Source: a virus (lineage: Duplodnaviria > Caudoviricetes). Taken from it: a DNA stretch of 64,000 bases. A program made the position numbers and the translations under genes. Under the pieces are notes generated by a model. That model saw nothing but the letters and a program-made list of their open reading frames with translations. It had not been told where the DNA came from and did not search any database. Position 1 is the first letter of the stretch; each line of letters opens with the position of its first letter. The stretch spans positions 1,197-65,196 of IMG/VR virus record IMGVR_UViG_3300042691_019112. The stretch is one strand, 5' to 3'. Below are positions 247 to 1,335 of the stretch, piece after piece.

Positions 247-429
247 ATGGAAAACAAACCCTCTGCTGACGCAAAACCCGTGTTACCTGCCGTGCATTAT
301 GCACCATACGGTGAATGGGGTGGAGAACGTGTTAATTGCAATAGGTATTTTACTACTGATGTAGCACATACAGGAAATAAAGATAAAGTGACTTGTAAAT
401 TCTGTCAGCGTCTTTTGCATGGCAGGTAA
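247..429 (+). CDS. small putative zinc-binding protein, cassette-encoded (copy 1)
   Basis: H...C...VTCxxC motif; 47 of 48 codons from LPAV onward encode the same residue as in 14822..15037. Confidence 0.8.
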   Translation: MENKPSADAKPVLPAVHYAPYGEWGGERVNCNRYFTTDVAHTGNKDKVTCKFCQRLLHGR

Positions 430-430
430 C
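282..430 (+). mobile_element. integron-like gene cassette A, copy 1
   Basis: Starts GTTACCTGCCGTGCA and ends TGCATGGCAGGTAAC (15-bp inverted repeat, 1 mismatch); second copy has the same boundaries. Confidence 0.7.
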
Positions 431-553
431 GTTTGGGGCTTTGTGCAGGTGGGGATTTTAGCACCCAGGCTGAATTGAAAAACAAATGCTCAACCTACTA
501 CAAATGTTTCATAGTAGTACGTCTGCCCCACTTGCACAAAACCGATGTTAGGC
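423..553 (+). repeat. attC-like recombination site
   Basis: GGTAAC (to 430), arm TTTGTGCAGGTGGGG (440-454), arm CCCCACTTGCACAAA (526-540), then GTTAGGC (547-553). Confidence 0.7.
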
Positions 554-1156
554 GATGCTTTTCTTCGGTCAATTTAGTAACAATTTAAAACAAAAATAAA
601 ATGTCAAAAACAAAAATTTTCTTTGATACAGAGTTTACTGGATTACACCAAAATACAACTCTAATTTCTATTGGATTAGTTTCAGAATGTGGCAAAACAT
701 TCTATGCGGAATTTAACGATTACGACTTTAAGCAGGTTGATGATTGGTTAAGAGAAAATGTGATAAATAATCTGCAATACAATGGTATATTTCAAAAGTT
801 GGATGAAACAAAAAACAGTATTTCATACAAAAGCACAACTGAAAATATAAAAGAAAAACTTACAGCTTGGTTAGAACAATTTGGTGAAGTAGAGATTTGG
901 TCTGATTGCCTTTCTTACGATTGGGTTTTGTTTAATCAAATTTTTGGACACGCCTTTAATATCCCTAAAAATGTCTATTACATTCCATTTGATATTTGCA
1001 CCTTGTTTTATGCAAAAGGAATTGATGCTGATATTAATCGTGAAGAATTTTCAGAAATGACAGAAGGAAGTCAAAAGCATAATGCCTTATGGGATGCAAA
1101 AGTTATTCGTCAATGCTTTGTCAAATTGCAGGGTGTTTCTTAAAGTATCGCCTAAC
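547..1156 (+). mobile_element. integron-like gene cassette B carrying the exonuclease gene
   Basis: Starts GTTAGGCGATGCTTT and ends AAAGTATCGCCTAAC; AT-rich interior. Confidence 0.7.
601..1143 (+). CDS. DEDDh 3'-5' exonuclease (Rv2179c-like)
   Basis: FFDTEFTGL...ISIGLV...YDW...HNALWDA motifs. Confidence 0.85.
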
Positions 1157-1185
1157 ACCGAAATATACGCAAACCCCTTTTTGAG

Positions 1186-1335
1186 ATGTTTAAATGGTTA
1201 AGAATTTGCCGCTTTTTGCGAGCAATGCGAAAAAAGCACAACCGATACGACTTTAAAATTGTCACATCAAGCGACGTTGTTGTGATTTACGTTGAAGATA
1301 CAGAAGATGAATTACGATTAAACTGGAGAGGATAA
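1186..1335 (+). CDS. hypothetical protein (49 aa)
   Basis: Hand-translated MFKWLRICRF...LNWRG*, ending just before the YopX start. Confidence 0.45.
   Translation: MFKWLRICRFLRAMRKKHNRYDFKIVTSSDVVVIYVEDTEDELRLNWRG

Follow-up and report, generated by a model that had tools for sequence, protein, structure and literature searches.

A putative recombinase-less cassette array of an integron-like system in a bacteriophage genome

Integrons are seen as a bacterial gene-capture device. Their attC recombination sites are imperfect hairpins of 57-141 nt, which have an unpaired spacer and extrahelical bases governing the choice of strand, and in sedentary chromosomal integrons of the Treponema/Chlorobium type the integrase is co-oriented with the cassettes. 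The PeSL (promoter early stem-loop) elements of T4-like phages are promoter-terminator composites acting through homologous recombination, and the pdif modules of Acinetobacter plasmids are gene modules bounded by inverted sites and thought to be moved between replicons by Xer-type recombinases. The available parts of two papers on PeSL cassettes describe repeated stem-loop intergenic motifs that bracket variable genes in hyperplastic regions and take part in modular shuffling (PMC2839356, PMC4122927). The available part of Qi et al. 2023 (PMC9892861) quotes GTTRRRY and RYYYAAC as the consensus of the integron core and inverse core, and reports clusters of attC sites lacking integrases (CALINs) in virulent phages, including Polaribacter phage P12002L with methyltransferase cargo, one attC site of which was recombined by IntI1. 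We analyzed a 64,000-nt stretch of DNA (the window; bases 1197-65196 of the 65,196-bp viral contig IMGVR_UViG_3300042691_019112, which carries 28-bp terminal repeats), in which positions 247-1156 hold two single-gene cassettes and one folded candidate recombination site. This segment is probably a short, recombinase-less array of an integron-like system of Bacteroidota phages and their relatives. Our literature search found no description of such a system, the nearest being the phage CALINs in the available part of Qi et al. 2023 (PMC9892861), and the system as a whole appears to be undescribed in the literature searched.

Cassette arms and the hairpin element

A preliminary description, made from the sequence alone, had proposed two adjacent units, each beginning with GTT, ending with AAC and enclosed in its own 15-bp inverted repeat, with an imperfect hairpin of about 130 bp between them. 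We recovered the three inverted repeats (282-296/416-430, 440-454/526-540 and 547-561/1142-1156), each matching at 14 of 15 positions, and the GTT(A) and (T)AAC ends of both units. The hairpin repeat can be extended to 437-454/526-543 (18 nt, 89%) and that of the second unit to 543-561/1142-1160. In all three repeats the sole mismatch pairs a G of the 5' arm with a T of the 3' arm, and in both cassettes it falls at arm position 11, leaving 10 perfect pairs, the G.T and 4 further pairs. Across the genome, 15-nt repeats of this kind (at most one mismatch, at most 1500 nt apart) numbered 7 pairs, and 40 first-order shuffles of the genome had 3.05 on average and at most 8; pairs of the GTTA...TAAC type made up 4 of the 7 and were absent from all 40 shuffles. 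The scan yielded two further units that the preliminary description had missed, at 14821-14969 and 21436-21721, both on the minus strand. All four units fit the same design, with arms of 10 bp, G.T and 4 bp, GTTA at the start and TAAC at the end, around one open reading frame (ORF).

Cassette 1 has a paralogue in the unit at 14821-14969, and the pair highlights the constraint on the arms. Both encode the same small protein; of the 149 nt, 21 differ, and 20 of these are third codon positions. All 21 lie in the middle 103 nt, with none in the first 18 or the last 28 nt. Since the 14 degenerate third positions in these ends are all unchanged, something besides the protein keeps the ends constant, and the comparison indicates that the cassette arms are under selection at the nucleotide level. 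An invertible segment was also considered for cassette 1, where the antisense frame is open, but it is so only through the absence of TTA, CTA and TCA codons, and the purifying selection is that of the sense frame; the candidate was rejected.

The hairpin element at 431-546 is bordered by TAAC (427-430) and GTTA (547-550), and its interior holds three modules of about 20 nt of the type gCACaAAtGTTcAAT. A 14-nt motif from the left border of unit 2 located 103 loci in viral contigs, about 42 of them distinct with the extended motif (C/A)AAACCGAT^GTTAGGCG (^ marking the border), and these have a matching CGCCTAAC 160-1148 nt downstream. The conserved left flank (..CPTCTKPMLG..) was considered as a split zinc-ribbon gene, a reading rejected for its in-frame stops and its covarying, indel-rich alignment. 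Iterated nhmmer searches of the fetched loci gave 148 copies of a unit of about 137 nt (hairpin plus boxes), 97 of which are distinct and near-full. The copies form co-oriented arrays with elements 300-1200 nt apart, reaching 10 copies in L064 and 14 in L104.

In an alignment of 78 copies, RNAalifold predicted a 17-pair stem, with compensatory changes at 16 of the pairs. The structure put to the test has 24 pairs, consisting of the stem, the TAAC/GTTA boxes and three non-canonical positions. Its cells are paired in 91.6% of cases (70.5% in shuffles), with 334 double changes (99.7 in shuffles) and a covariation score of 0.494, compared to 0.134 for shuffles, none of 500 of which reached it, and 0.045-0.098 for slid partners. 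The window copy aligns over its full length with the 77 others under the same 24-pair structure. The imperfect hairpin of the preliminary description is thus, as judged from covariation over 78 copies, a real structure, but its folding energy is unremarkable on either strand: a single-copy DNA fold of 416-561 gave -22.6 kcal/mol (z -1.85) for the top and -21.9 kcal/mol (z -1.73) for the bottom.

The non-canonical positions are themselves conserved. Columns 21/155, which adjoin TAAC/GTTA, are G.U/G.T in 77 of the 78 copies and columns 40/140 in 71; columns 36/143 comprise 47 G.U and 22 G.C, and columns 30/150 are unpaired in 49 copies. The fixed G.T become A.C mismatches on the other strand, and the structure is therefore strand-asymmetric. 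The TAAC and GTTA boxes hardly vary, being conserved in 70-78 of the 78 copies. Beside them is an asymmetric internal loop (alignment columns 22-26 versus 154), and the site measures 130 nt with the boxes included; no conserved one-sided bulge was demonstrated in the 78-copy alignment. A blastn search of the hairpin against 50,697 isolated phage records produced marginal matches only (best E 0.04, within a methyltransferase gene).

Cassettes in the fetched loci follow the organisation seen in the window. The G.T at position 11 is present in 122 of 131 GTT[AG]...[TC]AAC pairs (at most one other mismatch), and arm positions 5-10 and 12-15 vary among cassettes while covarying between the two arms. 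Of 72 cassettes, 70 have their longest ORF on the array strand and one has it on the other strand; one lacks an ORF. Translation stops within TAAC, within the right arm or shortly ahead of it, and begins inside the cassette, at an ATG overlapping GTTA (ccgATGTTAGGCG, Met-Leu-Gly), or at an ATG in the third module of the element. Motifs in the translations of 117 distinct cassettes identified many DNA methyltransferases, PAPS-reductase-like and YopX proteins and many small ORFs; the motif AAACCGATGTTAGGCG is common to many cassettes. With cargo consisting largely of DNA methyltransferases, the arrays most likely stock accessory, possibly counter-defence, genes.

The linked recombinase and the movement of cassettes

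The preliminary description had seen no integrase, and this absence extends to the whole 65-kb genome. A Pfam scan of the genome ORFs also found no transposase, HUH enzyme or reverse transcriptase; the phage encodes Erf, a PDDEXK exonuclease, SSB, DUF1064 and methyltransferases (Pfam). A protein common to four complete element-bearing phages (GC 31-46%) was tried as the candidate enzyme and rejected, as these phages share only methyltransferases (blastp 1e-6).

PF00589 was present in two of the five array-bearing phage records that were searched whole. In one of the array-bearing records, a 266-aa tyrosine recombinase gene stands directly after the array, and this protein alone was used to fetch relatives from viral contigs (the best 80 of 203, with flanks of at most 7 kb). 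The hairpin element was found in 53 of these 80 loci, in 126 copies. In 51 of the 53, the elements are upstream of the recombinase gene and co-oriented with it; one of these (L289) has two more downstream, and the other two loci (L250 and L251) have only a partial match just after the gene. Between the end of the last upstream element and the recombinase start there are 168-6399 nt. In 43 of the 47 distinct upstream sequences listed, 35-55 nt separate the recombinase start from a conserved site, [TC]AAC^TATTATATATA or a close variant of it, and a regular expression found the motif in 52 of the 77 loci with 150 nt or more upstream. It is with [TC]AAC that the last cassette closes, and the terminal TATTATATATA site comes immediately after. 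At the array end in the window, ACCGAAATATACGCAAAC resembles, weakly and by eye, the distal part of the TAAC^TATTATATATACGCAAC site ahead of the recombinase gene in relatives; this likeness (1157-1175) is partial, and no recombinase gene follows. The earlier suggestion of a host or helper recombinase is a fair one, with the enzyme linked to the arrays of relatives (53 of 80 loci) and absent from this genome.

The 266-aa recombinase scored 178 bits with NF040815 (XerA/integron integrase; cut-off 220) and 146 bits, in two stretches, with TIGR02249 (integron integrase; cut-off 265). The closest solved structure is that of archaeal XerA (4A8E, 119 bits), and IntI4 (2A3V) is matched only by the N-terminal residues 17-178. 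The protein collection contains more than 7,800 homologues at E 1e-20 or better; identity is 80-88% for the top 120, of which those that carry a name are called XerD.

The element is also present in bacteria. A 19-letter pattern retrieved it from assemblies labelled as Riemerella anatipestifer (6 copies), Flavobacteriaceae, Flavobacterium, Chitinophagaceae (on a 1.1-Mb contig) and Chlorobium, as well as from three short contigs binned to other phyla, and no IntI above the cut-off was found in five bacterial genomes with elements. Recombinase homologues (39-49% identical) occur in 92 of 401 genomes sampled from the Bacteroidota group, and 10 of the 30 best bacterial recombinase loci (gene ±1.5 kb) contain the element, usually on the other strand and past the gene's 3' end. 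The Chlorobium locus has four elements and four cassettes with the same arm pattern and G.T polarity; its three largest cassette ORFs are on the opposite strand, and a hairpin follows each ORF. A C-terminal fragment of a tyrosine recombinase, 56% identical to the phage enzyme over 52 residues, adjoins the array, and IntI-like C-terminal fragments are present in the same assembly. The sites keep their polarity relative to the array end whichever way the genes are oriented, which argues for a role at the level of DNA and not of mRNA. The Chlorobium array (L211) lies in a low-GC island (3866-8600) beside Wadjet-like genes (DUF3375, DUF4194/MksE); it includes a PLD-like nuclease cassette, and a neighbouring ORF fuses a TacA-antitoxin domain to a recombinase C-terminal fragment.

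Comparison of related cassettes located their TAAC borders to the base. Seven cassette pairs from different contigs are 89-97% identical over 182-926 nt, and in every pair similarity ceases with TAAC, the very next base downstream already being unrelated. In five pairs similarity on the upstream side stops at or before the conserved AAACCGAT^GTTA, and in L108/L077 and L128/L129 it continues for about 55-70 nt; the upstream elements are 63-74% alike with different stems in five pairs, and 86% alike in L108/L077. The sole DNA that this genome shares with any array locus is a 330-nt stretch at 94.5% in L110, comprising cassette 3 (the unit at 21436-21721) and 44 nt of leader; the cassette matches L110:3903-4188 over 286 nt at 96% identity, with flanks that diverge straight after TAAC.

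Contigs assembled from public runs were in line with these borders. The lake-water contig X6 shares 573-1156 of the exonuclease cassette (cassette 2) with 12 differences and diverges straight after 1156: in place of the window's ACCGAAAT it continues with GTTTCGGGG, with which another element begins. The window's element is matched as far as 550, the A of GTTA, by contigs in X2, X3 and X5, which then carry other cassette arms, and an X2 relative joins 255 to 1179, its array missing or replaced. The preliminary description had made common GTT/AAC breakpoints in homologous genes decisive for its proposal, and such borders were found in the seven pairs and in the lake contig. Near-identical elements keep the downstream cassette and change the upstream neighbour in L119/L078, L120/L104, L064/L043, L054/L124 and L049/L104, and with other near-identical elements both neighbours differ. 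Both TAAC^ and ^GTTA are therefore breakpoints, with the element more often linked to the following cassette. An exact scan with the left arm of cassette 1 returned 27 viral-contig loci, which were rejected as chance matches, none having a homologous cassette. Among 47 relatives chosen by ThyX (at most 59% identical), none had the element, and no syntenic empty site was found.

Features of the phage genome

The features of the array and of the two solitary cassettes are collected in Table 1.

Table 1. Cassettes, hairpin elements and cargo genes in the window
Feature	Position	Strand	Description
ORF, 60 aa, cassette 1 cargo	247..429	+	Small Cys/His protein
Cassette 1, 149 nt	282..430	+	Arms 282-296 GTTACCTGCCGTGCA / 416-430 TGCATGGCAGGTAAC; 10 bp + G.T + 4 bp
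Inter-cassette hairpin element, about 116 nt	431..546	+	Stem 437-454 with 526-543; nhmmer and covariation
Cassette 2, 610 nt	547..1156	+	Arms 547-561 GTTAGGCGATGCTTT / 1142-1156 AAAGTATCGCCTAAC; 10 bp + G.T + 4 bp
ORF, 180 aa, cassette 2 cargo	601..1143	+	Rv2179c-like (DnaQ-fold) 3'-5' exoribonuclease; PF16473, phrog_2259
Array end	1157..1185	+	TAAC then ACCGAAATATACGCAAAC; by-eye comparison, weak
Solitary cassette, cassette 1 paralogue	14821..14969	-	Identical arms
Solitary cassette 3, 286 nt	21436..21721	-	Arms GTTAGGCGTAGTTTT / AAAATTACGCCTAAC; ORF 21449-21787
Hairpin element, right half (model positions 63-139)	21722..21783	-	nhmmer E 1e-9

The cassette 1 ORF starts 35 nt ahead of the cassette border, and its TAA stop lies within the terminal TAAC. 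Its product matched no Pfam or PHROG family and has 21 unnamed homologues of 48-87 aa, in which the core is conserved from VHYAPYGEWGG on and the N-terminal leaders vary up to the arm-encoded residues. The leader of the paralogue ORF (14822-15037, minus strand) likewise differs from that of cassette 1.

Matches of the cassette 2 ORF to the exoribonuclease families are at E 5e-14 (PF16473) and E 7e-60 (phrog_2259). Its DNA is about 68% identical to genes of Bacillus phages AR9/PBS1 and of Enterococcus phages, and it was the sole match in a blastn search of the first 6 kb against isolated phages. The host of the phage analyzed here is probably a member of the Bacteroidota, because its large terminase shows a distant relationship (20-24% identity) to the terminases of Flavobacterium, Cellulophaga and crAss-like phages. 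The likeness of the exonuclease gene to the Bacillus jumbo phages AR9/PBS1 hints at transfer between phage groups whose hosts belong to different phyla. The gene lies within the low-GC first 2 kb of the window (37%, versus 43-50% elsewhere).

Cassette 3 has arms of the GTTAGGCG type, as in unit 2. Its ORF starts inside the remnant of an upstream element, and this half element provides the start codon and leader. A perfect 13-nt GTTA...TAAC repeat (GTTATGAGCAAAG / CTTTGCTCATAAC, 21329-21341 and 23187-23199, 1871 nt apart) encloses cassette 3 and two more genes; it is without the position-11 G.T and may be due to chance. The array at the start of the window is bracketed by an exact 13-nt direct repeat, CCTTTTTGAGATG, at 237-249 and 1176-1188, each copy of which ends in the start codon of the following ORF (247; 1186).

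Elsewhere in the window, a 17-nt inverted repeat with one mismatch (12625-12641 GGCATACCTTTGTCGTG / 12979-12995 CGCGACAAAGGTATGCT) encloses 337 nt between minus-strand genes and is not of the GTTA/TAAC type. The GC skew is -0.418 at 2001-4000, and an RNase H gene (3241-3720, minus strand, PF00075) is followed by about 1.1 kb (3721-4880) without an ORF of at least 90 aa. The window contained no tRNA and no Rfam match at the gathering cut-off.

Proposed mechanism, alternative explanations and described systems

The mechanism that we propose starts from cassettes that each consist of one gene within its own 15-bp inverted repeat, opening with GTTA, 6 nt, G and 4 nt and closing with 4 nt, T, 6 nt and TAAC. 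The hairpin element of about 116 nt, beginning right after TAAC and ending right before GTTA, joins one cassette to the next. On the strand with the fixed G.T wobbles, TAAC and GTTA pair and stack on the element stem, lengthening the hairpin, and in a unit closed into a circle the cassette's own arms could add 15 pairs to create an attC-like site. Junction models folded at -63.9 and -68.6 kcal/mol, compared to -51.9 kcal/mol for the genomic context, with RNA parameters and as an illustration only. The logic would be that of attC, in which a folded single strand mimics a duplex core site, served here by an Xer-like enzyme with a primary site beside its gene. The 266-aa recombinase would be the enzyme that cuts and joins at the TAAC/GTTA borders. 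As the phage encodes no such recombinase, the enzyme would be supplied in trans; the cassettes presumably arrived, and could move again only, through an enzyme from a co-infecting phage, a prophage or the host.

A wider proposal, on which we are evenly divided, is that Bacteroidota phages run a mirror image of the integron, with a small Xer-like recombinase lacking the extra domain of IntI and folded top-strand TAAC-hairpin-GTTA sites ahead of the genes. Single accessory genes (methyltransferases, nucleases and small proteins) would be exchanged among unrelated phages and hosts, and phages without the recombinase would receive cassettes at secondary sites resembling the terminal site (..ACGCAAC..).

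Several observations weigh against the proposal that the segment is an array of an integron-like system. No tyrosine recombinase was found in the 65-kb genome by PF00589 over the whole genome, by a Pfam scan of 58 ORFs or by tblastn with the array-linked recombinase, and the phage has an Erf/exonuclease recombination module of its own. PF00589 had no match in three of the five array-bearing phage records, two of which are rated complete, and 27 of the 80 recombinase loci have no element, several loci having only tens to hundreds of bases upstream. The phage genome has just one full and one partial element. The element hidden Markov model (HMM) was seeded from window 421-565, so its score on the window copy is not independent, and the folding energy of this lone copy is unexceptional compared to shuffles. 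In several pairs the cassette travels with neither of its neighbouring elements, an outcome that is not predicted by a single-crossover attC model. The X2 relative is without YopX (1336-1761; the join is 1335-1762, with 13 other letters between) and shows no GTTA/TAAC borders there, so ordinary mosaicism also acts in the region. The ORFs of cassette 2 and of the L115 cassette are unrelated, and the two cassettes have in common only the 57 nt that precede the start codon and the final 21 nt, as would be expected had conserved flanks recombined by homology. The assembled contigs of public runs revealed no recombination event, no excised circle and no empty site.

We think it improbable that the segment is a fragment of a canonical integron, either a CALIN or a single attC lacking an integrase (SALIN), with the hairpin a true attC for a host IntI and the cassettes picked up from bacteria. 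The ends of cassette 2 (GTTAGGC/GCCTAAC) do fit the core and inverse core, but AGGTAAC of cassette 1 does not fit the YYY; the site of about 130 nt is within the attC length range, and the IntI-like fragments of the Chlorobium assembly favour the idea. The array-linked recombinase is below the TIGR02249 and NF040815 cut-offs and matches IntI4 (2A3V) over 17-178 only, and none of the five element-bearing bacterial genomes has an IntI above the cut-off. The element is 5' of the phage ORFs and stays with the downstream cassette, and we know of no attC feature like the 15-bp cassette arms pairing around a fixed G.T. The Rfam search at the gathering cut-off had 0 matches, although it is uncertain whether Rfam holds an attC model.

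Published phage CALINs and the recombination of a P12002L attC by IntI1, in the available part of PMC9892861, also speak for a canonical integron. In the P12002L record (NC_028924), genes at 29237-30011, 30952-31120, 39242-39518 and 40552-40764, the methyltransferase gp35 and gp56 among them, lie within GTT[AG]...[TC]AAC repeats of the same style, with the gene-strand mismatch at arm position 11. The element HMM detected no full element in this record, and the P12002L units look like a diverged relative of the same cassette style. The integron-like interpretation of the preliminary description is supported, but its attC-type cassettes are to be taken as a functional analogy only. In phages the hairpin precedes the gene with which it travels, in contrast to the 3' position of attC, and the recombinase linked to the arrays differs from a canonical IntI.

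We give still less credence to a role of the repeats in RNA, with hairpins as processing or stability signals (for example RNase III sites), arms that pair the ends of the message to hide a start codon or protect the ends, and shuffling that follows incidentally from selecting for intact units. As such a role would have it, every fixed non-Watson-Crick position reads as G.U on the sense strand of the phage genes, the start (ccgATGTTAGGCG) is often in the left arm and the stop (TAAC) in the right, and many ORFs start at the ATG of the third module. However, the Chlorobium cassette ORFs are on the other strand while arms and elements keep the G.T polarity, and bacterial elements are mostly antisense to the neighbouring recombinase gene. 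A role in RNA also fits poorly with the base-exact TAAC breakpoints in independent comparisons, with the recombinase gene linked to arrays and with the near-invariance of TAAC, GTTA and the adjacent G.T (70-78 of 78), a sequence that a pure helix would not need.

Comparably little weight goes to portable homology, as in the PeSL cassettes of T4-like phages, where general or relaxed homologous recombination by the phage's own Erf and exonuclease would exchange the genes with no site-specific enzyme. The Erf, PDDEXK exonuclease and SSB genes, the ends shared by cassette 2 and L115 around unrelated ORFs (57 nt 5' and 21 nt 3'), the AAACCGATGTTAGGCG motif of many cassettes and the adjacent gene-sized indels without GTTA/TAAC are all in line with it. 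However, array-terminal cassette copies diverge exactly after TAAC with nothing shared beyond, neighbouring elements in one array differ in stem sequence and so offer little homology, and the compensatory changes and fixed wobbles indicate a folded site; the tyrosine recombinase link and the conserved terminal site would be left unexplained. Finally, the total of 7 repeats is inside the shuffle range (maximum 8) and the arms lie in or beside coding sequence, but repeats arising by chance or as by-products of coding constraint have a negligible claim, refuted by 4 GTTA...TAAC pairs versus 0 in 40 shuffles, by a mismatch of the same position and identity in 122 of 131 pairs (the fixed position-11 G.T), by synonymous sites frozen in the arms only and by arms that covary between cassettes.

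The integron-like system appears to be a parallel to the bacterial gene-capture device, with a different recombinase and inverted gene polarity. It seems abundant, with recombinase homologues widespread in the protein collection and in genomes of the Bacteroidota group. If true, the proposal explains the base-precise gain and reshuffling of single accessory genes by unrelated virulent phages, provides a defined, testable mechanism for part of phage mosaicism and offers a natural comparison for the evolution of single-strand-site recombination from Xer enzymes. To this the window adds the frozen synonymous sites in the arms, a cassette shared with an otherwise unrelated phage and the occurrence of cassettes in a genome without the enzyme.

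Of the features of the system itself, this genome has the hairpin between TAAC and GTTA and the cassette-specific arms, and it lacks the recombinase with the terminal TAAC^TATTATATATA site. A transposon or miniature inverted-repeat transposable element is a poor match. No direct repeat flanks three of the four units (around cassette 2, ACCGA occurs on either side with a one-base offset), the Pfam scan of the genome ORFs found no transposase family, and arms that covary left versus right are not expected of transposase binding sites. With pdif modules the cassettes share the placement of genes between inverted sites and the Xer-type tyrosine recombinases, but pdif sites are 28-bp duplex XerC/XerD sites, with no hairpin or cassette-specific arms, served by the host's chromosome-resolution enzymes. 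PeSL cassettes are alike in their repeated stem-loop motifs around variable phage genes (available parts of PMC2839356, PMC4122927). The cassettes described here have specific inverted repeats, base-exact borders and a linked recombinase, in contrast to promoter-terminator composites. The Chlorobium assembly recalls the sedentary integrons of the Treponema/Chlorobium type in that its ORFs read away from a recombinase fragment on the same strand with a hairpin after each ORF, but only the C-terminal fragment of the recombinase is present.

The closest likeness is to integrons and CALINs. Common to both are co-oriented arrays of promoter-poor single-gene cassettes, AAC...GTT boxes that flank an imperfect hairpin conserved in structure rather than sequence, complementary ends of each cassette, a tyrosine recombinase gene with a primary site at one array end, and the existence of orphan arrays without the enzyme; the methyltransferase cargo is common to the phage CALINs in the available part of PMC9892861. 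A CALIN has at least two attC sites and no integrase nearby, whereas this genome has one full element and one half element 21 kb away. An IntI with its specific extra domain was found neither in this genome nor in the array-linked recombinase, and an attC 3' of the ORF that travels with the cassette is not the arrangement of the phage arrays, the canonical order being seen only at the Chlorobium locus. Unlike integrons, the system has a linked enzyme that is a 266-aa Xer/XerA-like protein, scoring below the IntI cut-offs and aligning to IntI in part, and its phage hairpins are 5' of the gene with the G.T wobbles on the gene strand. A 15-bp pairing with a fixed G.T joins the arms of each cassette, breakpoints occur at both borders, and the recombinase gene stands at the downstream end of the array, co-oriented with it.

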